A stretch of 37,037 bases of DNA from an uncultured Bdellovibrionales bacterium (GCA_964385005.1 CAYLMF010000003.1:3521-40557), one strand, 5' to 3'; counted from the stretch's first letter, positions 2,424-24,876 are shown. A program made the numbers and translations. The notes: generated from the letters alone by a model not told the origin.

Positions 2424-3275
2424 TTAGTGTTGGCAGGTAGTGCAGAAAAAAACACTGCGCTGTGCCATTTTGGCTCTTTTGATAATTGTACCACATTTCT
2501 TGCAGGGCTCATCTGTCCTTCTATAGACAAACAAAGCCTTCTTGAACTTGCCAGGCTGCCCATCAAGATCACGAAAGTCTCCGTCTGTAGTACCGTGCAG
2601 TCGCACTGCTTCACGGAGTACTTTTTTGACAGCCTGGAGCAATTCTTTAGATTCTGCTTTAGTAATTTTGGTAATTTTTCGTGTCGGCAAAATACCCGCC
2701 AAGAAGAGCGCTTCACTTCGATAGATATTGCCTATCCCTGCGATCAGATTTTGCTCAAGGAGCACCGGCCCTATGGCTTTGGTTTTCCGAGTACCGAGAA
2801 TAGTACGAAAAGTCTCTTCTGTAAGACGCGAAGAAAGTGCGTCTATTCCAAGAGCCTGAATAGCTGGCAGTTCCTCTACTCGAGTCTTCTCGATCAAAGC
2901 CAGCCAGCCAAACTTCCGCATATCAGAAAACTCCAGCGTGGTCTTATCCGAAAAAGTGAAAATATGATGGATATATCCGTTGACTCTGTCTTCCGTAAAT
3001 ATAGGGTCATCTTTGGTCTTAGGTGTTTTGTAGAGAAAGTGTCCCGTCATCTTGAGATGCACTACTATAGCGTATTCATTATCAAGCTCTATCACAATAT
3101 GCTTACCGTAACGCTTCGTACTCACAATAGATGCGCCATGGACACCTTGCTGAAATTCCCTGACTCCAGGCATAACCTTTTTTGGCCAACCACTCCAAAA
3201 GTCAGTAATTGTTTTGCCTACAACCTTTTGGCCTAATTGGGTGACAACCGTCTGCACTTCTGGTAATTCTGGCAT
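2424..3275 (-). CDS. mutM: Formamidopyrimidine-DNA glycosylase
   Basis: The protein starts with the canonical MPELPEV (catalytic Pro2/Glu3). It has an H2TH region (IAGIGNIYRSEALF) and a C-terminal zinc finger (CKKCG...FFCTTCQ). Confidence 0.92.
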   Translation of the reverse strand: MPELPEVQTVVTQLGQKVVGKTITDFWSGWPKKVMPGVREFQQGVHGASIVSTKRYGKHIVIELDNEYAIVVHLKMTGHFLYKTPKTKDDPIFTEDRVNGYIHHIFTFSDKTTLEFSDMRKFGWLALIEKTRVEELPAIQALGIDALSSRLTEETFRTILGTRKTKAIGPVLLEQNLIAGIGNIYRSEALFLAGILPTRKITKITKAESKELLQAVKKVLREAVRLHGTTDGDFRDLDGQPGKFKKALFVYRRTDEPCKKCGTIIKRAKMAQRSVFFCTTCQH

Positions 3276-3295
3276 AGTACTGGCTCTTATTATCT

Positions 3296-3324
3296 ATTGA
3301 CAAAATATAATATTTATGCTATAC
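3296..3324 (+). promoter_or_regulatory. Near-consensus sigma70-type promoter facing the plus strand
   Basis: TTGACA (3296-3301), a 17-nt spacer, then TATACT (3319-3324). The spacer contains the palindrome AAATAT-A-ATATTT. The promoter sits about 35 nt upstream of the ATG at 3359. Confidence 0.6.
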
Positions 3325-3358
3325 TCGACATTACGACTCAAAACAGGGAACCTTAACA

Positions 3359-3754
3359 ATGATCGTGCGCTTTATCACCGTCAGCCAAGGGAGTGTTCGT
3401 CAGACCTTCCGTATGGACACCGACGATCTTTCTGAGGTCTTTCGACTGTATCAGGAAGGTCATCACTGGAATCGTATTGCTTTTGGCGGAATGACCTCCC
3501 TTGGTCGTTCTGGCATAGCCATTGATTTCCGGGACCGTATCGTGGTCAGTGGCCACAAAATCGACCCCATCCCCTCGGAACTGCTCAATCTCGTTGAGCA
3601 CTTTGATGACTTCTCCGAAGCCATCAAGAAACTCTCCGAGGGTGGCGACGTCTTGATCCGGGGTGATGATAACAATCTCATCCTTTTCAAGTGGAACGGC
3701 CATCAGTCCGCACTTGAAGTCTTTGGACTTGGCGACGACAATGAACCCGCATAA
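3359..3754 (+). CDS. Hypothetical 131-aa protein (strand call is ambiguous; see findings)
   Basis: The ORF lies between a consensus promoter and a strong intrinsic terminator, with AGGGA 9 nt upstream of the ATG. Its codon choice (cgt, ctc/ctt, ggt/ggc, atc) matches the clear housekeeping genes here. The codon-complementary minus-strand ORF instead uses aga, acg, ccg, gga and ggg. I recognise no family. Confidence 0.5.
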   Translation: MIVRFITVSQGSVRQTFRMDTDDLSEVFRLYQEGHHWNRIAFGGMTSLGRSGIAIDFRDRIVVSGHKIDPIPSELLNLVEHFDDFSEAIKKLSEGGDVLIRGDDNNLILFKWNGHQSALEVFGLGDDNEPA

Positions 3755-3791
3755 AGTCCTCGACCTCGCTCGAGGCGCAAACCGCCCTCCG

Positions 3792-3833
3792 GGACCCTCT
3801 CTAGCAAAACTGCTAGTTGAGGGTCCTTTTTTT
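3792..3833 (+). terminator. Intrinsic terminator, plus-strand orientation
   Basis: GGACCCTC (3792-3799) pairs with GAGGGTCC (3819-3826). An inner CTAGCA/TGCTAG extension closes an AAAC loop, and TTTTTTT follows (3827-3833). No T-run follows the hairpin on the minus strand, so it should act only on plus-strand transcripts. Confidence 0.75.
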
Positions 3834-4313
3834 ATACTCTTCCCAATCTTTTTGCGAGAACTTTCCAAGCGGTTTAAACGACTCTGCGGCAACACCTCCA
3901 ACAAAACCAACTACTCCATAAAATCGTTTTTGCTTTCCTGTAATTCTCGGCTCTATCTGTACATTTTTTGGATCAATTTCCATAACGTACCGTGACTGAC
4001 CTTCTGGTAGGTAAGGGCCAATTCCAATAGTCCCCGCTATAAAAGAAAATCTTCTTCCTGTTTTTACATCCTGCTTAGGCACAAAATGAATCCCATATTT
4101 CATCACTTCCTCTGCAAACTCTTCTGGTATGGTGATGATTGGATTGATATTATTTTTAAGACATTCTGCTATAAATTCTCTGGCTTCATCGGCATCTTCT
4201 AGCCCCTCTTTGTGAACAAGGTCTATCTCAGAGTATATATCTGAAGAATTTTCTAGGCTTTCTTTTTTAGGTGTTGGCACATTCAAAAAATCAAATCTTT
4301 CCATAAAATACAC
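3813..4313 (-). CDS. Hypothetical protein (166 aa)
   Basis: This long ORF lies downstream of polA on the same strand. It starts at a GTG at 4313 with AAGG 5 nt upstream; an alternative ATG is at 4304. Its last codons run through the hairpin and T-run of the plus-strand terminator. I recognise no motif. Confidence 0.55.
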   Translation of the reverse strand: MYFMERFDFLNVPTPKKESLENSSDIYSEIDLVHKEGLEDADEAREFIAECLKNNINPIITIPEEFAEEVMKYGIHFVPKQDVKTGRRFSFIAGTIGIGPYLPEGQSRYVMEIDPKNVQIEPRITGKQKRFYGVVGFVGGVAAESFKPLGKFSQKDWEEYKKRTLN

Positions 4314-4324
4314 TACTACCTTTA

Positions 4325-6934
4325 TTAAATTTCACCCCAATTTTTACCCACACTTACCTCAACAGTAAGTGGCACACTGATAGTATACACACTCTCCAAC
4401 ACTTCCTTCAGTCGAGAGGCAAACGCATCTGCCTTTTCTTCTTTGACTTCAAAGATGAGTTCATCATGCACCTGGAGCACTGGGTAAACCTCACCTTCTC
4501 CAAACTCTTTCACGAGGTCCATAGTCTTCAGCATCGCAAGTTTCACGATATCCGCTTCCAATCCCTGGATAGGCATGTTGACAGCCATGCGCTCACCCGC
4601 TTTCATCACCTGGTTATTGGTGCTTTGAATTTCTGGCACATGGCGGCGGCGACCGAGTTCTGTTTCTACATAGCCAGTTTCTTTGGCGGCCTTGAGTGCC
4701 TGATCAATATACGTGCGTACACCAGAAAAGGTCTTGAAGTAGGTGTTGATAAATTCCTTGGCTTCCGCCTGAGTGATAGAGGCAGCAGCGGCTAAACCAA
4801 AGGCACCCATGCCATACATAATACCGAAGTTAAAGACCTTGGCCTGACGACGCATATCATAGGTCACTTCTTCTGGCTGGACTTTGTAGACAGTGGCAGC
4901 CGTAATAGTATGTACATCTTCATTTTTTCTGTATGACTCCAAAAGGGCTTTATCCTGACTCAAGTGTGCCATGATACGAAGTTCTATCTGAGAGTAATCT
5001 GCCCCTACTAGGAGGTAGCCTGGGGTGGCCTCGAAAGCCTGGCGGATCTCCTCGCTCCATTCGCTCCTGGCAGGGATGTTTTGGAGATTAGGGTTAATAG
5101 AAGAAAGTCTCCCTGTAGCTGCGATGGTTTGCTGATAGGTGGTATGGAGACGTGATTCACTGTCTGTCAGCGTCGGTAAAGCGTCGAGATACGTAGACTT
5201 CAGTTTAAAAATCTCTCGATACGATTCTATCTTGGCGGCGATTGGATACTCTCCGAGTTTCTGAAGTTCACTTGAGGCAGTCGAGATGCCCGTCTTGTTT
5301 TTCTTGATAAAGTCAGTTGGAATTTTGAGATCCACAAAAAGTACTTCTGCCAACTGCTTTGGTGAATTGATATTAAACTCTCTGCCAGCCAGCAGGTAGA
5401 TTTGCTTAGCCAATTCCTCGATAGCCGTACTCAGACGATTCGCCATATCGGCAAAACTACTCAGGTTGAGGATAATGCCCCGCTTTTCCATAACGTAGAG
5501 CACAGGAATAAGCGGCATTTCTATTTCATCAAAAACAGTTCGGATGCTTTTGGTTTTATCTTGATTACTACTTACTTCATCGAGTTTGGCATCGAGATTT
5601 TTCCAAAGCTCAAAGACGAGTTCTGCTTTGTTTTCTTTACTTTCATGAAGGACTGCCTCGCCAGCACCTGCAAGCGTACCGTCTGTAGAAACCTCTACCA
5701 TATAGAGGGCGAGGGTGATATCAAATACTCCGTTGGTAATTTCTATCCCCTCTTTGCCAAGAGCATGCATGGCGCGCTTGAGATCATACCAGCCTGTCTT
5801 GATACTCTTGTCTCCGAGAAGCTTCACAAGAGTCGCTTTGGTATCTTCGTTTATTTCTACTCGATAGCTTTCGCCCTTCTCGGTGCAAAGCTCAAGAGCT
5901 ACTAGATGAGCTCCAAACAAAGAGTCTTCACTTATTTCAATTTCACACGCAAGCTTCGTATTAGAAAAGTTCTCAAGCAACGGTATCTCTTCACTTATCT
6001 TGATATTCTTAATCTTTGTTTTTTTGGTTGACTTCTTCTGCTCCGCTTCATGATTGATAACAATTTCTCCAGGAAGACGCTTAAGTAAGCTGTAGAATTC
6101 ATACTCCCGAAGAAAGGCTTCCGCTCGCGGGCGATCATAGTCATTGATCTTCATCGCTTCTTCATCGATAGCAATATCCACGTCTACTTTGATAGTTCCA
6201 AGAATGCGTGAGAGAAAAGCCTGATCTTTATCTCGCTCGAGATTTTCGAGAAGCTTACCTTTGAAATCCTCAAGATGGGCATAGATTCCCTCGATGTTAC
6301 CGTACTTCTGAATCATGGTGGTAGCGGTCTTCTGGCCTACACCTTTCACGCCAGGAATATTGTCTGAGCTGTCTCCAGCCAGACCCTTGTACTCAATCAA
6401 TTGTGAAGGGAGAAATCCATACTTAGCCGCTACTTCAGCTGGACCATAGAGCACGGTATCCTTGATGCTTTTACGCATCGTGAATACTTTTACCTGTTCA
6501 TCCACAAGCTGCAGCGTATCTGTATCTCCAGTCACAATAATCACATCATAACCCTTGTTCTTGGCTTGGACTGAGAGTGTACCTACAAGGTCATCTGCTT
6601 CAAAGCCTTCCTTCTCATAAATAGGGATTCCAAAAGCCTCTACCATTTCCTTGATAATTGGTATCTGACTATAGAGGTCATCTGGAGCAGCTTCACGATG
6701 AGACTTGTACTCCTCATAAAGGTCATCACGGAAGGTTCCGCCCGGAAGATCAAAGGTGGCAATGATGTTTTCTGGATTGAACTTCTCAATGACCGAGAAA
6801 AGAGTCAGAGCAAAACCGTAGACCGCGTGCACTGTCTCTCCGGTCTTAGTAGTTAGCGGTGGGAGACCATGATAGGCACGATGAAGAATAGCGTTTCCAT
6901 CGAGCAATATGACTGTTTTTGGCTTGTTTTTCAT
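4325..6934 (-). CDS. polA: DNA polymerase I
   Basis: The 869-aa protein has an N-terminal 5'-3' exonuclease/FEN domain (ILLDGNAILHRAYH, GDSSDNIPGVKGVG). Family A polymerase motifs are present: motif A (VGADYSQIELR), motif B (RRQAKVFNFGIMYG) and motif C (QVHDEL). Confidence 0.95.
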   Translation of the reverse strand: MKNKPKTVILLDGNAILHRAYHGLPPLTTKTGETVHAVYGFALTLFSVIEKFNPENIIATFDLPGGTFRDDLYEEYKSHREAAPDDLYSQIPIIKEMVEAFGIPIYEKEGFEADDLVGTLSVQAKNKGYDVIIVTGDTDTLQLVDEQVKVFTMRKSIKDTVLYGPAEVAAKYGFLPSQLIEYKGLAGDSSDNIPGVKGVGQKTATTMIQKYGNIEGIYAHLEDFKGKLLENLERDKDQAFLSRILGTIKVDVDIAIDEEAMKINDYDRPRAEAFLREYEFYSLLKRLPGEIVINHEAEQKKSTKKTKIKNIKISEEIPLLENFSNTKLACEIEISEDSLFGAHLVALELCTEKGESYRVEINEDTKATLVKLLGDKSIKTGWYDLKRAMHALGKEGIEITNGVFDITLALYMVEVSTDGTLAGAGEAVLHESKENKAELVFELWKNLDAKLDEVSSNQDKTKSIRTVFDEIEMPLIPVLYVMEKRGIILNLSSFADMANRLSTAIEELAKQIYLLAGREFNINSPKQLAEVLFVDLKIPTDFIKKNKTGISTASSELQKLGEYPIAAKIESYREIFKLKSTYLDALPTLTDSESRLHTTYQQTIAATGRLSSINPNLQNIPARSEWSEEIRQAFEATPGYLLVGADYSQIELRIMAHLSQDKALLESYRKNEDVHTITAATVYKVQPEEVTYDMRRQAKVFNFGIMYGMGAFGLAAAASITQAEAKEFINTYFKTFSGVRTYIDQALKAAKETGYVETELGRRRHVPEIQSTNNQVMKAGERMAVNMPIQGLEADIVKLAMLKTMDLVKEFGEGEVYPVLQVHDELIFEVKEEKADAFASRLKEVLESVYTISVPLTVEVSVGKNWGEI

Positions 6935-6970
6935 ATTTCAATTATACTCTCTGGCTCTATAAAGGGGAAA

Positions 6971-7714
6971 TTAGTACTTCTTCCACACCATTTCAAATAT
7001 TTGCCTCAAAGCCTTAGCTACATCTTCATTCTCTATAGCCATGCCCTGCAGGTTCTTGTAATCCTCTATCCGCACTAAATCACCTGTTACGGTAATAGCT
7101 ACTTCTGAGGAATAGTCTTTGGTAGAAATTTGCTTAATGTTTCGCCCGTACGCTTGGTCGGTCTGACGATAGCCCTCGAGCTGCTCATCTGCTGGCGCCA
7201 AGCCTCGCATCCGAATACTGTGCCGCTGCATTTTCTTGGGGTACTCTTCCTTGAAGTATTCTGTCAGTTCTGGTGAAGCATTCTTATCCGTAGCCCAAAA
7301 ACCAAGCATTTCCTCTCCCGCATGCTCCTTAAATCTATACTCAAGCATTTGCTTCATACCTTCTGTACCTTCAAAGTAGAGAGCGCTCACCTTATTCTTC
7401 TTACCTTTGGCCATGGCCAAAATCTCAGGCAAAAAAGCTCTTGCTTGAGAGAGCTCGTGTGAAGCTCGGGCAAAGGCCTCCTCAGGAGTACGAGCTACAT
7501 AGTGCTGGGTCTTCATCTGAGAAACCTTGAGCACCAGGCCTTTTTCAATCAGCTCATCCAATATGACATAGGTAGTAGGCTTTTTGAGACCACTCTTCAC
7601 CGCCACCCTATATGCAGTAGACTGGCCCAACTGCAAAAGAGCCGCGTAGACCGCTACTTGCTTATCGTTGAGACCAAGTGTTTTGAGCGCTTCTTCTATG
7701 TTCATAGACTTCAT
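6971..7714 (-). CDS. TrmB-family (winged-helix) transcriptional regulator
   Basis: The N-terminus LKTLGLNDKQVAVYAALLQLGQSTAYRVAVKSGLKKPTTYVILDELIEKGLV is the typical TrmB-type HTH. The track ORF starts at a TTG at 7741. In-frame ATGs at 7714 (preceded by GAGAG) and 7705 are more likely starts. Confidence 0.7.
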   Translation of the reverse strand: MKSMNIEEALKTLGLNDKQVAVYAALLQLGQSTAYRVAVKSGLKKPTTYVILDELIEKGLVLKVSQMKTQHYVARTPEEAFARASHELSQARAFLPEILAMAKGKKNKVSALYFEGTEGMKQMLEYRFKEHAGEEMLGFWATDKNASPELTEYFKEEYPKKMQRHSIRMRGLAPADEQLEGYRQTDQAYGRNIKQISTKDYSSEVAITVTGDLVRIEDYKNLQGMAIENEDVAKALRQIFEMVWKKY

Positions 7715-7830
7715 GGTACTCTCTTTTTCATATTTAGTCAATATTTTTGATGAATATTTTGTATTATATTATTTATGCTTTATATAAAGTATATTATACG
7801 AATATATGAGATAAATACTAGACATTATTA

Positions 7831-7859
7831 TTGACTCTTTGTCACAAAAAGGGTATACT
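7831..7859 (+). promoter_or_regulatory. Near-consensus sigma70-type promoter (P1 of the small-gene island)
   Basis: TTGACT (7831-7836), a 17-nt spacer, then TATACT (7854-7859). The spacer contains CACAAAAAGGG. The inverted repeat TCACA-N12-TGTGA (7842-7863) overlaps the -10 element. Confidence 0.65.
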
Positions 7860-7916
7860 GTGATGTTGAGTTGAGCAATCACTCACAAACGTTCTTTTCA
7901 CAAACAGGGGGTCACC

Positions 7917-8174
7917 ATGTATCTAGTTATTTCAAAAAAGGCAGATGTATTCTTCGGTGGATTTGAGTACGGACTCTTCGACAAGGAGTTCCCTTCCACC
8001 GAAGAAGCTCTCGTCTGGGTCAGAGAACGTATGAGCCGAGAAGCTCAGGCAAGGCTCACGAGTGACTACCCAGTGTTCCAGTCATTCACCACCTACAAAA
8101 TATTTTCGGAGGTCCAAATCGAAAGTATCGAAAAGGATCCCGAGGATATCTGGGACCAGGGCATAGAGCCCTAG
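7917..8174 (+). CDS. Hypothetical small acidic protein (85 aa)
   Basis: The ATG is preceded by AGGGGG (7906-7911) at 5-nt spacing and lies downstream of P1. The stop is followed 11 nt later by the repeated hairpin. I recognise no family. Confidence 0.6.
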   Translation: MYLVISKKADVFFGGFEYGLFDKEFPSTEEALVWVRERMSREAQARLTSDYPVFQSFTTYKIFSEVQIESIEKDPEDIWDQGIEP

Positions 8175-8183
8175 TTCCTAAAC

Positions 8184-8224
8184 TTGGCAGAAGTGTCTCA
8201 TCGTATTCACTTCTGCCCTCCATT
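8184..8224 (+). repeat. Copy 1 of a 41-nt perfect direct repeat containing a 10-bp hairpin
   Basis: TTGGCAGAAGTGTCTCATCGTATTCACTTCTGCCCTCCATT. GGCAGAAGTG (8186-8195) pairs with CACTTCTGCC (8208-8217) around a 12-nt loop. It is identical to 8709-8749. No T-run follows it. Confidence 0.9.
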
Positions 8225-8615
8225 AAGTCTTGAAAAATATTCAAGACTTATAGAGAAACCGTTCTTTCAAAAAGGAGTTGATTAATCGTAAAAAATGTAT
8301 ATATCCAATGATAAATTATTCATTTATCACATGGATAAACTCACATGATGCGCCTTCGTCGTATCTGTCGTCATTTGGGACGCGTACATCGTGGTCTTGA
8401 AATGGCATCCACGGTCCTCGGACTGTGGATCATACTACGAGATCTTCTCTAGTATGGGCGGGGTGTTTGAGTTTCAACCTGGCAACAGAATGGAAGCTCC
8501 AGGGAACGTGACAACCTGAACCAATAGTCACTCTGGGAAAGTATGTAAACACATACTTCTCCCCTCAACTGAATGCATTACATGGTGTAGTGCATTCTGA
8601 GAGGGAGTAACAAAA

Positions 8616-8705
8616 ATGGCAGCAGCAAACAGTGGTTCAGTTGGTCGCGGCAAACCATTCAGGGTGACCGAGGAGGAAAAACCTCCTGAGACCAAACCTC
8701 TATAA
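8616..8705 (+). CDS. Candidate micro-ORF (29 aa: MAAANSGSVGRGKPFRVTEEEKPPETKPL)
   Basis: The ATG is preceded by GGGAG (8603-8607) at 8-nt spacing. The TAA stop lies 5 nt before copy 2 of the repeated hairpin, the same geometry as the 85-aa gene and copy 1. It is too short for the ORF track and is unverified. Confidence 0.35.
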   Translation: MAAANSGSVGRGKPFRVTEEEKPPETKPL

Positions 8706-8708
8706 TCT

Positions 8709-8749
8709 TTGGCAGAAGTGTCTCATCGTATTCACTTCTGCCCTCCATT
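8709..8749 (+). repeat. Copy 2 of the 41-nt perfect direct repeat / hairpin
   Basis: It is identical to 8184-8224, with stem arms at 8711-8720 and 8733-8742. The downstream sequence ATAGAGA..CGTTCTT..AAAC..AGGGGG is also partly shared with copy 1 and with the 5' UTR of the gene starting at 7917. Confidence 0.9.
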
Positions 8750-8812
8750 GAGACTATGACTTCTGTCAGAGTTTCATAGAGATCTCGTTCTTAAACAAAC
8801 CAGGGGGATATC

Positions 8813-8995
8813 ATGCTGAAACAGCTATTTCTTTTCTCGACAGCACAAGCTGTTTTCGTTTTCCTTGTCATGTATTACATGATGGAGAAAATCGTTCCCA
8901 TTCTCACCGCTACCGGAGGATTAGCGTTCGTATCCTCCACTTCATTGAGATTGCAAGCTTCTTGTTATTTCATAGAGTATAGAAGGTTTTTCTAA
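8813..8995 (+). CDS. Hypothetical small membrane protein (60 aa, two hydrophobic segments)
   Basis: AGGGGG (8802-8807) lies 5 nt before the ATG. The sequence LFLFSTAQAVFVFLVMYYMM ... ILTATGGLAFVSS suggests two TM helices. Confidence 0.55.
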   Translation: MLKQLFLFSTAQAVFVFLVMYYMMEKIVPILTATGGLAFVSSTSLRLQASCYFIEYRRFF

Positions 8996-9039
8996 GGCGT
9001 TTATTTGCATGTGGACGCTTTAGATAAGCCTTTCTACTA

Positions 9040-9068
9040 TTGACTTATACACAAAAAGGGTGTATAAT
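9040..9068 (+). promoter_or_regulatory. Near-consensus sigma70-type promoter (P2 of the small-gene island)
   Basis: TTGACT (9040-9045), a 17-nt spacer, then TATAAT (9063-9068). The perfect inverted repeat TATACAC-N7-GTGTATA (9046-9066) overlaps the -10 element. The spacer shares CACAAAAAGGG with P1. Confidence 0.65.
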
Positions 9069-9122
9069 ATAAAGTCACAGTAGTAATTTCACTCCTGTCA
9101 CAAAATTCCAAGGGGAATATGA

Positions 9123-9326
9123 ATGCAGCGCGTTAAAAAGTTTTTTACCTGGCTTTGGAAGACCTTTTGGGGTTTTCCTGTTTGGGTCAAGATTGCCCTC
9201 ACTTTCTTCATCGCCATGAAGATCAATCCTTCGGCGGCTGTTAGCCTCCTTATGATCGGGGTTTGCCTCTGGGCCATCCGGCACATGTGCCGGAGCCTCA
9301 TCCCAAAGAAAGGCAAGAAGAAATAA
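9123..9326 (+). CDS. Hypothetical small membrane protein (67 aa, Trp-rich, two TM segments, Lys-rich tail)
   Basis: AGGGGA (9111-9116) lies 6 nt before the ATG, and the gene is downstream of P2. The sequence reads FFTWLWKTFWGFPVWVKIALTFFIAM ... VSLLMIGVCLWAI ... KKGKKK. A hairpin terminator follows it. Confidence 0.6.
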   Translation: MQRVKKFFTWLWKTFWGFPVWVKIALTFFIAMKINPSAAVSLLMIGVCLWAIRHMCRSLIPKKGKKK

Positions 9327-9351
9327 CTTGAGCCAACGTGCTCACAAAAAG

Positions 9352-9385
9352 GCCGCCCATCGCAACTGCGATTCGGGCGGCTTTT
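9352..9385. terminator. Bidirectional intrinsic terminator shared by the 67-aa gene (+) and the metalloprotease-like gene (-)
   Basis: GCCGCCC (9352-9358) pairs with GGGCGGC (9375-9381), with an inner ATCGC/GCGAT stem. AAAAA lies 5' of the hairpin and TTTT lies 3' of it. Confidence 0.7.
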
Positions 9386-10309
9386 CTATTGTGCGAGTTT
9401 TTTAATTTTAGAAGCGATTTCCAGAAAGACTTTTTTAGCACTGGCTGTATCAAGAATTTCATGAAATGCCATCACAATCGGTCCAAGCTCCAAAAATTTG
9501 GTATCTGCTCTCGCCAATCTCGCAACAAACTTATCCGAAAAAACCTCATTCAAAAGATCAGCCACTTCTCCATTGAGTAAGTCAGTGCCACTTAAGTACT
9601 CTCGTACTACTGATTGCCACACCACTTCTTTTGGTATGCCGCACTCTTCTCCAAGTCGTTCACAAAAGGTCCTGACAAAAATCCTTGCCAATGGATATTT
9701 AGAATCATATTTTTTCTCTTCGCCCGAACCTGAGCGACGCACGTATTCTTGATAGACTACGGAAGCAAGCTCATCTGTCACCCCCTCGTTGAACCAGCGT
9801 AACTTTGTATCTGACTTCATTATAAGCGAACCCTTCGTTTCGATATTTTGTTGATCAAAACCAATTTGCACTTTGATACTGCCTTTTTTCATAAGAGAAA
9901 GTAGGGCGTCGTCTTGCTCTTCTTCATAATGACTGTACGAAACAGCATGTGCTTCCTCGTGACATATCATTTCAAGTACCAAATCTTTAGCGTCTTTTTT
10001 ATCCCGTGTCGCCAGCACTTCTGCCATGAGTGTGTGTATGGTAATTTTTTTGTCTTTCGCCGAATACCAACCACCTGCAAGTGGACTCTTGAACGCTGGA
10101 GGATCCTTTATGATATCTTTTTCCTCTACGAAATTCATTTGTTCAGAATCAAGTCCGCTGCGACGAACGTGTTCTGCAAAAATTTCACGAAGCTCATGAA
10201 AATCTATCCACTCAAATGATTCCCTATTTTCCAATCTGTCAGGTCTTTTTTGATTTTTTTCACCAGCTGACGGCGGCATTTCAAACATCTTATTCATACG
10301 CTGGTACAT
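9386..10309 (-). CDS. Putative zinc metallopeptidase (HExxH, gluzincin-like), otherwise uncharacterised
   Basis: It has an HEEAH motif (EMICHEEAHAV) and a downstream FNEGVTDE that resembles the thermolysin-type NExxSD third zinc ligand. There is no signal peptide. Its start overlaps the end of tsaE by 20 nt. Confidence 0.5.
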   Translation of the reverse strand: MYQRMNKMFEMPPSAGEKNQKRPDRLENRESFEWIDFHELREIFAEHVRRSGLDSEQMNFVEEKDIIKDPPAFKSPLAGGWYSAKDKKITIHTLMAEVLATRDKKDAKDLVLEMICHEEAHAVSYSHYEEEQDDALLSLMKKGSIKVQIGFDQQNIETKGSLIMKSDTKLRWFNEGVTDELASVVYQEYVRRSGSGEEKKYDSKYPLARIFVRTFCERLGEECGIPKEVVWQSVVREYLSGTDLLNGEVADLLNEVFSDKFVARLARADTKFLELGPIVMAFHEILDTASAKKVFLEIASKIKKLAQ

Positions 10310-10739
10310 TGCAGGTAATTTTTCGTTCGTCTTCTCCTTCTTGCTCGAGATTGATATCTATTCTTTTCTCTGGCAATACCTCTGGTACGCGCTCTGGCCA
10401 CTCAAGAATCACAAGTCCTTTCGGATCACTACACCACTCCTCAAATCCTAAGTGTTCGATATCTTTTGTTTCTATTCGATACGCATCTATATGGTATACC
10501 CGACTAATACCTGATTCAGTCGGTACTGGAAGAGTATACTCTTTCATAATGACAAATGTGGGGCTCGTATAAGGTCCTTCGGCACCAAGGCCTTCGAGAA
10601 TACCCTGAGTGAGCGTCGTCTTGCCTGCCCCAAGATCCCCAGAAAGACAAAGGCTCACGCCAGGAAGAAGATCTTTGGCTAACTCTTGCCCAAAATCCTT
10701 TGTTTCCTGATTATTATGCGTAATCTGTATATTTTTCAT
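10290..10739 (-). CDS. tsaE: tRNA t6A37 threonylcarbamoyl-transfer ATPase TsaE (YjeE)
   Basis: The Walker A context LSGDLGAGKTTLTQGILEGLG, then SPTF and HIDAYR, together with the 149-aa size, are characteristic of TsaE. Confidence 0.85.
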   Translation of the reverse strand: MKNIQITHNNQETKDFGQELAKDLLPGVSLCLSGDLGAGKTTLTQGILEGLGAEGPYTSPTFVIMKEYTLPVPTESGISRVYHIDAYRIETKDIEHLGFEEWCSDPKGLVILEWPERVPEVLPEKRIDINLEQEGEDERKITCNVPAYE

Positions 10740-10852
10740 ATTTTCATCCTAGCCTGGACAAGCATATTTGGCGAGAGCCTGGTTCTTTTTCCTTGACGTA
10801 AGGCTTTTTCCTTGCTATTTTTGATTATTCATCTAAACCCATTATCTCTGCC

Positions 10853-11992
10853 ATGTCCCTCAATCTTGCTCAACAATTCGAAGAACTTCTCCAAAAAGCT
10901 ACTCATCCGCTTATTATTGTCACTCCCCACGCTTCCCTCGATGCTGTCTCAACTGCTGTAGCATTGGCTCTTTTCTTTGAAAAAATTGGCAAGAAGGCTA
11001 CCCTCGCTGGTGACACTCTCACAAAAGACCTTGAAAGCCTCGCTATTCTTGATAAACCAGAGAATATCCGCGAATCTATCACAGCTTCTCGTGACTTCGT
11101 GTTGGCATTCAATACAGAATACAACAACATTGTCAGTATCAAATCAGAGCGACTACCCAAAGAGTTTCGTATCTACCTCACGCCAGAGAAGGGTACGATT
11201 GATCCCCGTGATTTTTCTTTTATCCCCGCTCAATTTATTTTTGACTTAGCTATTGTTCTTGGCGCTCATGACAAAGAACACTGCGGCAAAATCTACGAAA
11301 GTGATCCTGACATTTTCTTTGAAATGCCTGTCGTCAATATTGACAATCAGCCCGCCAACGAAAATTTTGGTCAATTTAATGCTATCGATCTCAAGGCCTC
11401 TTCTTTGGCTGAGATAGTCGCTGATCTCTTTCTTGCATCTAAGGCAGGCGCCCTACCAGACGTTATGGCGCTTCCGCTCCTTACTGGTATTATCGCTGCT
11501 ACTGATAGCTTTCAGAAAAAAAACACGACTCCAAAATCTCTCCAGCTCGCTTCTGTCCTCATGCAGATGGGTGCTGACCAACAACGTATCATTCGCTCAC
11601 TCTACAAGACTCAACCCCTTCACCTCATTAAGCTCTGGGGTAAAGCTATGGCGCAGATCAAATCAGCCCCTAAACTCGACCTCGTCTGGTCACTTGTCAC
11701 CACCGAAGATATCGTCCATGCTCGCGCTGAAGCAGATGATCTCCCTCTTATCCTTGAAAAAATTAAGGCCAACTCTTCTCAGGCGAAATTTTTTGCCCTT
11801 CTTTCTCCAGAAAATTCTACTACCGTACGGGTTCTCATCAAAAGCGTATCCAAAGAGGCACTTGATGTACTGGTTCAGCACATTCCCGAGAGCACACTCC
11901 TCGGTGATACGCTCATGTTCCTTCTTCTTGCAGGTAGCCTCGAAGAAGCTGAGCAAATCCTTTTTGAAAAACTCGAGGTGGCTCTTTTGTAA
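10853..11992 (+). CDS. DHH-family phosphoesterase-like protein (NrnA/RecJ-like fold), catalytic motifs apparently degenerate
   Basis: The overall layout resembles NrnA: IIVTPHASLDAVSTAVALALFF at the motif I position, GIIAATDSFQ at the GIxTDTGxF position, and a C-terminal DHHA1-like part. Several conserved Asp/His residues appear to be replaced. Confidence 0.5.
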   Translation: MSLNLAQQFEELLQKATHPLIIVTPHASLDAVSTAVALALFFEKIGKKATLAGDTLTKDLESLAILDKPENIRESITASRDFVLAFNTEYNNIVSIKSERLPKEFRIYLTPEKGTIDPRDFSFIPAQFIFDLAIVLGAHDKEHCGKIYESDPDIFFEMPVVNIDNQPANENFGQFNAIDLKASSLAEIVADLFLASKAGALPDVMALPLLTGIIAATDSFQKKNTTPKSLQLASVLMQMGADQQRIIRSLYKTQPLHLIKLWGKAMAQIKSAPKLDLVWSLVTTEDIVHARAEADDLPLILEKIKANSSQAKFFALLSPENSTTVRVLIKSVSKEALDVLVQHIPESTLLGDTLMFLLLAGSLEEAEQILFEKLEVALL

Positions 11993-12031
11993 AGACTTCC
12001 CAGTTTGTCCTCAGAGTAGTCACGCGCTACA

Positions 12032-24635: not shown

Positions 24636-24876
24636 AGATATTTTTTTAAAAAGAATAGTTATTATATATTAGGGCTGTGGATAACTGGATAAGTCTCTTT
24701 TTTGTTTATACGTAAGCTTTTTTAAGTGAATAAGAACTTATTTTATAAAGTAGATAGTGAGGCAGAATGAGTTAAAAATATATTAGGCAACAAGAGAGAG
24801 TGTTTGTGTTTCTTTTTATCCGAGCGCTCTCCAGGGGTTATCCTCACTATTTCTGGCCTTATACAGAGTTATACAC
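24636..24876. other. Candidate oriC segment in the dnaA-dnaN spacer (DnaA boxes plus AT-rich stretch)
   Basis: A perfect DnaA box lies at 24676-24684 (TGTGGATAA = TTATCCACA on the minus strand). Degenerate boxes follow it: CTGGATAAG directly adjacent, then TTATCCGAG (about 24816) and TTATCCTCA (about 24838). A very AT-rich tract at 24636-24670 lies next to the perfect box. Confidence 0.6.

Follow-up and report, generated by a model that had tools for sequence, protein, structure and literature searches.

A conserved TrmB-linked operon of CPR bacteria combines structured RNA with a 29-residue peptide from a radical-SAM-linked family

What is the purpose of a stretch of bacterial DNA in which the longest open reading frame (ORF) has only 85 codons? 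The question is raised by a 1.6-kb region (7742-9385) within a 37,037-nt stretch of DNA from an uncultured Bdellovibrionales bacterium; the whole stretch is called the window here. The region lies between the gene of a TrmB-like regulator and a terminator. An earlier account made from the DNA of the window alone, referred to below as the sequence-only reading, had correctly given 85 codons as the upper limit, and it pictured the region as horizontally acquired. We compared the region with homologous loci, labelled L002, L003, L006, L008-L013 and so forth. On the strength of this comparison, the locus is a conserved operon in one group of lineages of the Candidate Phyla Radiation (CPR, or Patescibacteria). 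It contains three elements that the sequence-only reading had missed: a 29-codon ORF at 8616-8705, a 47-nt direct repeat and a structured RNA at 8186-8610. We favour, with a probability of about one half, the explanation that this is a TrmB-controlled modular operon and that its payload is a peptide partnered by a radical S-adenosylmethionine (radical-SAM) enzyme, in the manner of ribosomally synthesized and post-translationally modified peptides (RiPPs).

The product of the 29-codon ORF starts with MAAANSGSVGRGKPF and continues into a variable tail. A GAGGGAG Shine-Dalgarno (SD) sequence is found 8 nt upstream of its ATG. Third-position changes dominate in this ORF (8 vs 2-3 and 11 vs 2-5), and the codon for Ser-6 alternates between the AGT and TCT families. 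In the non-CPR locus L020, 15 residues of the peptide are identical to those of the window despite 7 synonymous differences. Judged by these substitutions, the ORF is a short translated gene under protein-level selection. It is divergent from the TrmB gene in L002, L003, L006, L008 and L009, and is found next to TrmB in L011, which has two copies, and in L012 as well.

The family was collected with an alignment of doubled peptides, and the results were pooled with earlier matches. In public data, 122 proteins carry the motif, 107 of them with Asn at residue 5 (at least 107 small ORFs). Across the 107 aligned members, N5, S6, G7, S8, G10 and G12 are present in every one, R11 in 106, V9 in 104, K13 in 98 and F15 in 91. 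The identity between members is 0.85 for the head and 0.10 for the tail (residues 16-30 are only about 10% identical). Five proteins contain two copies of the motif. A degenerate pattern of the peptide retrieved four loci from JGI metagenome contigs, one of which (L025) was false. Only one member has a UniRef entry, an uncharacterised protein of Candidatus Kentron. The peptide had no match in Pfam, NCBIfam, PHROGs or the PDB, its motif string occurs in no paper of the searchable literature, and a keyword search of the literature on radical SAM, precursor peptides and Patescibacteria gave no title or abstract that seemed relevant. A dependence of tail length on amino-acid composition, as expected if a random stop position were set by GC content, was not supported (Spearman about -0.1, P 0.27).

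Several members depart from this arrangement. ATA replaces the ATG start in L003 (6868), L004 (764) and one of the L011 copies (5748), with the frame and the SD kept, which suggests that translation starts at AUA or, in L003, that an internal ATG newly present at codon 9 is used. In L012 (5084-5671, minus strand) the peptide MGVANSGSMGHGKPFGKPEPKKQ is in frame at the C-terminus of an ORF with a CheY-like receiver domain and has its own internal SD and ATG; the arrangement could give a fusion protein or a separately initiated peptide. In two phage-like contigs (L021 6016-6215 and L036 3282-3398) the motif is repeated in tandem, two or three times, and the tails are Lys-rich and very short. One of these contigs is 336 kb long and encodes a T4-type RNA ligase and a thymidylate synthase; the other has TROVE/Ro, a YrlA-like RNA, tRNAs and an RNA ligase. 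The peptide gene of L036 is flanked on each side by about 320 nt of unannotated non-coding sequence. An identity as transfer-messenger RNA (tmRNA) was considered, as the ORF starts AAAN... and has ATA for ATG in two lineages, and as there are weak matches to alpha_tmRNA. It was rejected: ARAGORN finds no tmRNA, there is no conservation at the C-terminus, and elsewhere an ordinary ATG start is coupled to an enzyme gene.

The enzyme gene is that of a radical-SAM protein. Outside the CPR, the peptide gene directly follows a gene for a 387-398-aa radical-SAM protein in L020, L026, L027, L030 and L033, and in L020 and L033 the stop codon of the enzyme overlaps the start codon of the peptide (TGATG). 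Base composition varies: L020 and L033 are rich in GC, L030 in AT. The full operon order is readable only where the flanks are long enough, in L020, L027, L030 and L033 (about 3000-12000 in each), and runs from a YejF-like double ATPase through the radical-SAM protein, the peptide, an SBP_bac_5 protein and two permeases to a 1250-1315-aa protein, in which no Pfam or NCBIfam domain was found. The operons come from unrelated bacteria and their transporter is an ABC system of the Opp/Dpp type. Within the CPR, two peptide genes of L011 precede the gene of a 389-aa radical-SAM protein homologous to the non-CPR enzymes (E 1e-9 to 1e-14). A search with the L020 enzyme returned 114 clusters with generic names only, and 34 of these can be placed on the same contigs as peptide matches because the longest contigs are equally long. 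Only the Radical_SAM core (PF04055) was detected in the enzymes, whose weak best matches are NirJ, SkfB, nif11-class and PqqE-type maturases. No RiPP recognition element (RRE) or PqqD partner was found among the called neighbours. By its distribution, the peptide belongs to a cross-phylum family that is tightly linked to one radical-SAM family. This linkage is a direct observation, from which we infer that the peptide may be modified. L030 has, in addition, a second radical-SAM gene (389 aa), weakly similar to glycyl-radical activases, and a cREC_REC gene upstream.

Non-coding RNA is the other part of the locus that is strongly conserved. By its covariation, the sequence of about 450 nt upstream of the peptide gene is structured RNA, and structured RNAs make up about half of the region. 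The best-conserved stretch of the region is about 8425-8610, which is near-invariant while the neighbouring genes differ by 12-27%. A hairpin at 8469-8499 contains the conserved UGGCAACAGAA (8480-8490). Further occurrences of this motif, as YGGYAACAGAA and on the strand of the operon, are found in L009, L010 and L013 and, four times, in L011. For 8172-8815, RNAalifold gave 176 pairs, of which 21 have compensatory changes vs 8.1 +/- 2.1 in shuffled alignments (0/500) and 1-6 in slid controls, in a test that used five sequences only and a structure derived from the same alignment. Compensatory changes are seen in helices 5-16 of alignment A2, within 8256-8534, and one pair of the hairpin at 8571-8597 occurs as G-C, C-G and U-A (A2 helices 17-19). 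This last hairpin belongs to a diverged module, M0, whose closing helix extends to CCCUC (8562-8566) and GAGGG (8601-8605) and so pairs with the SD of the peptide gene. The leader RNA would thus gate translation of the peptide by SD pairing. A predicted long-range helix, formed by a 17-nt inverted repeat (I4) of 82% complementarity between 8507-8523 and 8633-8649, is weakly supported: it shows one compensatory pair (A2 helices 15-16; U-A twice and C-G twice) and is confined to the window clade.

M0 is one of several copies of a repeated module. The first half of this module is the 47-nt direct repeat (8184-8230 and 8709-8755), in which CTCCATT comes after a hairpin of 10 bp. The complete module has hairpin Ha, CUC[YAUU], hairpin Hb and [AYA]GAG, and is closed by a helix between CUC and GAG. 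In 13 copies taken from five lineages there are 41 compensatory cells vs 14.4 +/- 3.1 (0/500), and the structure of Hb is conserved more than its sequence. The covariance model of the module (R1) was searched over 274 kb, comprising the window and 23 loci, and matched only inside TrmB-adjacent operons. Apart from the window these are L002, L003, L006, L008, L009, L010 (seven matches) and L011 (six), some of those in L010 and L011 being weak or overlapping. R1 found nothing in L012-L019, the non-CPR loci, the phage loci or the rest of the window. A module-like match at 24831 of the window was not confirmed by the covariance model. The 47-nt repeat is not an intrinsic terminator, as what comes after Ha is CUCCAUU and another hairpin, not a T-run. 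A pattern for the leader had no match in viral contigs and one for the Ha hairpin none in JGI metagenome contigs.

Is the RNA itself the point of the locus? The stretch 8186-8610 might be an independent structured RNA or riboswitch with a function of its own, the small ORFs being secondary to it or incidental. At the nucleotide level, non-coding sequence is indeed the most strongly conserved in the region, covariation is extensive, UGGCAACAGAA is conserved across lineages, and the RNA would form a new class, as Rfam 15 at gathering score has no family for any RNA of the region (window, region, L010/L011 and L036). A lowered threshold (E up to 10) gave chance-level matches only. Two of the weak matches are to alpha_tmRNA, at 8393-8500 (plus strand) of the window (14.1 bits, E about 0.1) and at 5628-5782 (minus strand) of L011 (18.4 bits, E about 0.06). 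They lie in homologous parts of the leader, and a narrower search did not reproduce them; they are probably spurious because of shared GGCAACAGAA/GCAGCAGC strings. Against a pure RNA locus, selection at the protein level is clear for the 29-, 85- and 67-aa ORFs, loci without these RNAs also conserve the peptide, and the modules are placed between cistrons as cis elements would be. L009 is without most of the RNA of 8256-8534, yet it keeps the peptide. We consider this explanation quite unlikely.

Transcription of the operon appears to depend on two promoters, P1 and P2. Both had been pointed out in the sequence-only reading, and they are the two best sigma-70 matches within 6500-11000. Promoter-like matches of at least 10/12 are no commoner in the window than in shuffles (16 vs 15 +/- 3.8). 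We judge P1 and P2 to be real because in alignment A1 their -35 and -10 hexamers are invariant while the spacers vary, and not because of their consensus quality. L009 has TTGACT-N17-TATACT and TTGACT-N17-TATAAT at the equivalent positions. The regulator gene has its own promoter on the minus strand (7700-7745), TTGACT-N17-TACCAT, with TAGAAT as the -10 box in L006. In the window and L006 this box ends 6-7 nt before ATG 7705, so the mRNA of the TrmB-like gene is probably leaderless. ATG 7705 is the start of MNIEE..., and alignments with homologues begin at residue 4 of the longer ORF.

The regulator, a protein of 247 aa, matches Pfam TrmB (PF01978) over residues 18-85 (E 2.2e-13, 50.3 bits vs a cut-off of 25.6). 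It matches the TrmB structure 3qph in the N-terminal domain only (3qph residues 7-95, E 7e-4). The sugar-binding C-terminal domain of TrmB was not detected, neither Pfam nor NCBIfam matches anything past about residue 108, and all NCBIfam TrmB equivalogs score far below their cut-offs on the window protein. Candidate operator O1 has the form TAGTCAAT-N4-TTGATGA, and its core GTCAA...TTGA.G is invariant in seven CPR lineages (alignment A6). Candidate operator O2 follows the pattern TAG(A/T)CA-N6-TTGAC in 7/7 lineages of the same alignment, and L010 has a perfect GTCAA-N5-TTGAC. The TrmB-like protein is a plausible regulator because these conserved palindromic sites overlap both -35 boxes, and we infer that its dimer could repress both divergent promoters through O1 and O2. 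An earlier proposal had made the same protein a repressor acting at inverted repeats over the -10 boxes of P1 and P2. The regulator itself keeps its place as a candidate, given the -35 palindromes and a divergent linkage maintained down to 45% identity, but the proposed sites do not. The two repeats are present in the sequence, at 7842-7863 and 9046-9066, as is the shared spacer motif CACAAAAAGGG. In relatives, however, their 5' arms are unconserved: TCACA becomes CCATA, TCGCA or TGTCA, and TATACAC of the P2 repeat becomes CATTTGC or TTTTTAT, in neither case with compensation. The conservation of the 3' arm of the P2 repeat is due solely to its overlap with the -10 box, and the spacer motif is unconserved as well.

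The positions of all these features are collected in Table 1.

Table 1. Observed and predicted features of the region and its borders (window coordinates)
Feature	Position	Strand	Remarks
TrmB-like regulator gene	6971..7714	-	Winged helix-turn-helix N-terminal domain; C-terminal domain of unknown family
Candidate operator O1, TAGTCAATATTTTTGATGA	7735..7753	.	Imperfect palindrome over the -35 of the TrmB promoter (7741-7736, minus)
Candidate operator O2, TAGACATTATTATTGACT	7817..7836	.	3' arm is the P1 -35
Promoter P1, TTGACT-N17-TATACT	7831..7859	+	Hexamers kept, spacer varies in L002, L003, L006, L009-L013
5' untranslated region (UTR) of 85-aa gene	7866..7916	+	Almost invariant, A1 columns 210-252; two conserved TCACAAA copies
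85-aa protein gene	7917..8174	+	Clade-restricted, no known family or fold
Module M1	8186..8255	+	Ha, CUC-CAUU, Hb, AUA-GAG; model R1 72.1 bits; covariation in alignment A7
Structured non-coding RNA	8256..8534	+	Includes dubious 35-codon ORF and hairpin 8469-8499
Predicted long-range helix	8507..8649	+	8507-8523 would pair with 8633-8649 (peptide codons 6-12); encloses SD and start
Diverged module M0	8535..8610	+	Directly upstream of peptide gene; R1 at 8536-8603, 23.6 bits, E 0.007
29-aa peptide gene, MAAANSGSVGRGKPFRVTEEEKPPETKPL	8616..8705	+	ATG 8616 to TAA 8705; family MxxxNSGSVGRGK.F
Module M2, second copy of 47-nt repeat	8711..8781	+	R1 71.0 bits
60-codon ORF	8813..8995	+	Doubtful gene, within 196-nt cassette 8782-8977
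Module M3, inside 60-codon ORF	8917..8977	+	R1 47.7 bits, E 1.9e-8
Conserved hairpin CUAAGGCGU...ACGCUUUAG	8992..9023	+	Upstream of P2; AA/UU to GG/CC in L003, L004 (compensatory, A1)
Promoter P2, TTGACT-N17-TATAAT	9040..9068	+	Hexamers kept, spacer varies in L003, L006, L009
67-aa protein gene	9123..9326	+	Two transmembrane segments, polybasic C-terminus; clade-restricted
Bidirectional intrinsic terminator	9349..9385	.	GC-rich hairpin, T-runs on both strands; ctRNA-like hairpin plus U-tail

How would these parts work together? In the explanation that we favour, a TrmB-like dimer would bind the two palindromes that overlap the -35 elements of its own leaderless promoter and of P1. The P1 transcript would consist of short cistrons separated by the two-hairpin module, with lineages differing in cargo and with gain or loss of entire cassettes at the repeats of the module. 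The 29-aa peptide would be the recurrent payload, a ribosomally made substrate or partner of the radical-SAM enzyme (RiPP-like or cofactor-like), and its invariant N-terminal 13-15 residues would be the functional part. In the window clade a structured leader of about 360 nt would gate its translation, the last module pairing with the SD, and the 85-aa protein and the P2-driven 67-aa two-transmembrane protein would be clade-specific accessory cargo. The peptide is read as a substrate or partner of the enzyme because it adjoins a radical-SAM gene in distant bacteria and in L011.

The same peptide could instead act in cis. A ribosome-arrest or attenuation peptide would work through its first 15 or so codons in the exit tunnel, and stalling would remodel the RNA and control the downstream genes, an ABC transporter elsewhere and small membrane proteins here. 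An invariant head, an apparently unconstrained tail and a variable stop position are what such a peptide would show, and invariance across phyla would suit a universal target, for instance the ribosome. The ORF also lies within structured RNA, with predicted pairing of the leader to codons 6-12, and in the non-CPR operons it lies between the radical-SAM and transporter genes. The downstream genes, however, are wholly different between contexts. The linkage to one enzyme family is tight, with the start/stop overlap in L020 and L033, and two or three tandem copies occur, some of them in one ORF (P0008-P0010, P0013; L011, L021), which is unusual for arrest peptides and typical of precursors. Because of the enzyme linkage and the tandem copies we prefer an enzyme substrate, and we regard a cis-acting arrest peptide as unlikely.

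Several observations weigh against a radical-SAM-partnered payload. No radical-SAM homologue was found in the 37-kb window by tblastn with five enzyme queries (none at E <1e-3), and the enzyme of the window genome may be elsewhere or absent, and the peptide may act unmodified. The phage-like contigs carry the peptide with no radical-SAM gene nearby, and L010 and L013 have the same type of operon without the peptide. Between the L011 enzyme and the others, identity is no more than 25-31% in alignments of about 165-230 residues; one weaker alignment extends over about 330. The best matches of the enzymes to curated NCBIfam maturases reach 35-49 bits vs cut-offs of 300-725, and, by eye, there are few cysteines outside CX3CX2C and no Cys-rich SPASM region as is typical of peptide maturases. 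RiPP precursors do not typically combine a conserved N-terminal part with a tail free of constraint. Sequestration of the SD is confined to the window clade and is absent from L009.

A more far-reaching form of the enzyme-partner explanation can be offered tentatively, and we think it less likely to be right than wrong. MAAANSGSVGRGK(P)F would be the core of a hitherto unrecognised metabolite or cofactor derived from a peptide, which small SPASM-less radical-SAM enzymes of a new family would make and an Opp-type ABC system would handle. It would be conserved from Proteobacteria-like bacteria to the CPR and captured by jumbo phages, and in the CPR it would be under TrmB-family and structured-RNA control with a new class of intercistronic RNA module.

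The comparison of gene order bears on the origin of the region. The order polA, TrmB-like gene, small-gene region and tsaE is found in the relatives, which were recovered as contigs with 85-aa homologues and by a genome scan with the TrmB-like protein. The region is syntenic with the window in L002, L003, L006, L008 and L009, and the linkage of the TrmB-like gene to a divergent operon is also kept in L010-L013, at TrmB identities of 59-45%. The closest genome, L008, is a Candidatus Moraniibacteriota metagenome-assembled genome whose TrmB-like protein is 94% identical to that of the window; that of L009 is 76% identical. The GC content is 0.38-0.44 in the region vs 0.43-0.46 in the flanks. Since synteny holds in every relative recovered, the region appears to be vertically conserved in this CPR group and not a recent insertion; between its flanks it is conserved, not present in one genome and absent from the next. 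A lineage-specific insertion is suggested elsewhere, by a 307-aa ORF at 9386-10309 (minus strand) between the terminator and tsaE. It is found in the window only, and in L003, L006, L008 and L009 tsaE directly follows the terminator, which is itself invariant in these four. The 307-aa product carries an HExxH motif (CHEEAHAV) and has no match in Pfam, NCBIfam, PADLOC or PHROGs.

The other small ORFs differ in quality. Substitutions in the 85-aa ORF number 32 and 41 at the third position vs 7-15 at the first and second, and on this pattern it is a coding, clade-restricted gene. Its product has five homologues (72-98% identity), and its AlphaFold2 model (mean predicted confidence, pLDDT, 82) has no significant fold match in the PDB. 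In L009 an unrelated 174-aa gene takes its place. The 67-aa ORF, with 19 and 21 third-position substitutions vs 4-9, is likewise a coding gene by this measure; its two hydrophobic segments make it a convincing two-transmembrane protein, which has only two representatives among 1.84 billion proteins and may be a membrane partner or exporter. The 60-codon ORF has 1-2 synonymous vs 6-10 non-synonymous codon changes, the 3' half of its cassette is module M3, and as a gene it looks doubtful. Of the three small coding sequences without a family that had been proposed, two thus hold and the 60-aa one shows a non-coding substitution pattern; the claim that the last two are two-transmembrane peptides stands for the 67-aa protein, but not for the doubtful 60-aa one. 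Their AGGGGG and AGGGGA Shine-Dalgarno sites are present as described. The 35-codon ORF at 8345-8452 is not coding-like (2-5 synonymous vs 2-11 non-synonymous changes), and a 21-codon ORF at 8455 was rejected since its stop is lost in L002, L003 and L008. For the small products (85, 67, 60, 29 and 307 aa) and the cargo genes of the relatives, nothing significant was found in Pfam, NCBIfam, PADLOC or PHROGs.

A further recurring motif is TCACAAA, with five copies in the region and 16 in the whole window, where shuffling predicts 8.1. The enrichment in the region over the density outside it has P about 2e-4 (Poisson estimate for at least five). The five copies that had been described are thus there and enriched, but three of the five are unconserved in relatives. 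The two conserved ones belong to a motif, GTTCTTT...CA.AACAGGGGG, in the 5' UTR of the 85-aa gene that is common to other cassettes, whose 5' UTRs share GTTCTTT...CA.AAC-SD. AGAG-N-GTTCTT occurs six times in the window vs 1.0 expected.

These results leave little of the view that the region is a horizontally acquired one for toxin-like, immunity-like or secreted peptides of 85, 60 and 67 aa, repressed by the TrmB-like protein through the -10 repeats. What it describes is present: small ORFs without a family, consensus promoters and inverted repeats, a cargo that varies by lineage and a conserved TrmB linkage. But the composition is like that of the flanks, synteny is found in all relatives from TrmB to TsaE, the -10 repeats and the shared spacer motif are unconserved, the 60-aa ORF is not coding-like, there is no match in PADLOC or PHROGs, and the best-conserved elements are left out of it. 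The comparative data largely refute this view, which we consider very unlikely.

Could the modules be recombination sites rather than RNA elements? The 196-nt cassette (8782-8977) is flanked by TTTCATAGAG repeats at 8772-8781 and 8968-8977 and is precisely missing from L003, L008 and L009, so a unit is present or absent exactly at module repeats. The cargo in first position is swapped (85 aa vs 174 aa), L010 and L011 have 6-7 model matches each (some weak or overlapping) with unrelated cargo, and in Hb the structure is kept more than the sequence. A system loosely like integron attC sites, shuffling promoterless cassettes behind P1, would account for this. There is, however, no adjacent integrase or recombinase, the neighbours being polA, the TrmB-like gene, tsaE and an NrnA-like gene, and the module consensus is without the R and L boxes of attC (GTTRRRY/RYYYAAC). 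Homologous recombination between the repeats accounts for the indel, and the modules are oriented and placed like RNA elements, with a closing helix that touches the SD. Such a cassette system seems to us highly unlikely.

Some observations concern the neighbourhood. Downstream of tsaE, a 379-aa gene (10853-11992, plus strand) encodes a distant NrnA-like (DHH/DHHA1) relative of oligoribonuclease/pAp phosphatases (NCBIfam, 34 bits, below the cut-off), which is 79-92% identical in L008 and L009. The TrmB-adjacent operons of L010 (2480-4600, minus strand) and L011 (3200-5800, minus strand) are of the same type and have wholly different cargo without a family, including a Cys-rich 89-aa protein and several small two-transmembrane proteins. 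They end beside nusA, and the window operon ends beside tsaE. ARAGORN found no tRNA or tmRNA gene in the window.

Why does the locus matter? A sequence of 15 residues kept effectively invariant from phylum to phylum must touch something universal or become a defined chemical product. If the product is identified, it would bring new peptide/radical-SAM chemistry and a function for hundreds of unannotated ORFs, most of them overlooked or wrongly extended by gene callers. The locus is also one of few candidate CPR regulons whose regulator, operators, promoters and RNA elements can be defined, and it has a new RNA motif that organises variable small-gene cassettes. It illustrates that the best-conserved parts of a small-ORF region can be a 29-codon gene and non-coding RNA and not the longest ORFs.

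The components are each of a known kind, namely a radical-SAM/peptide pair, a winged helix-turn-helix repressor, and SD-sequestering and intercistronic RNA, and the peptide family, the enzyme family and the RNA module are in none of the libraries searched. The pair resembles PqqA/PqqE, MftA/MftC, sactipeptides, ranthipeptides and streptide in that a very short ORF is linked to a dedicated radical-SAM gene, and it shares with such systems the multiple precursor copies in some genomes and a transporter encoded within the operon. Like cofactor precursors, the peptide has a part that is extremely conserved. In contrast to leader-core precursors, PqqA and MftA, however, the conserved part is the N-terminal 15 residues and the C-terminal tail is unconstrained, and, unlike the radical-SAM peptide systems, there are no SPASM-type Cys clusters (by eye), no RRE or PqqD among the called neighbours and no enzyme gene in the window. 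Bottromycin-type precursors have an N-terminal core directly after Met and a C-terminal follower; the followers are conserved and needed for recognition, and the enzymes are YcaO proteins and B12-dependent radical-SAM methyltransferases. The conserved segment at the extreme N-terminus is shared with these precursors, whereas the tail of the present family is about 10% identical between members and a single small radical-SAM enzyme is present.

The regulator resembles TrmB of Pyrococcus and Thermococcus (3qph) in its N-terminal winged helix-turn-helix and in a palindromic candidate operator over promoter elements, and differs from TrmB proper in its length (247 aa, not about 340) and in target genes that are unrelated to sugar metabolism. 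The leader is similar to SD-sequestering leaders such as riboswitches, RNA thermometers and ribosomal-protein leaders, as its last helix pairs with the SD and the upstream domain is near-invariant and aptamer-like. Unlike those leaders, it has no Rfam family, and in place of a unique expression platform its last hairpins form one copy of an intercistronic module that is repeated. With integron cassettes the operon shares a promoter-proximal array of short, variable, promoterless ORFs, structured repeats and whole units that are present or absent; it differs from them in having no integrase and no attC boxes, in an indel that is explained by recombination between 10-nt repeats, and in repeats that behave as RNA elements.

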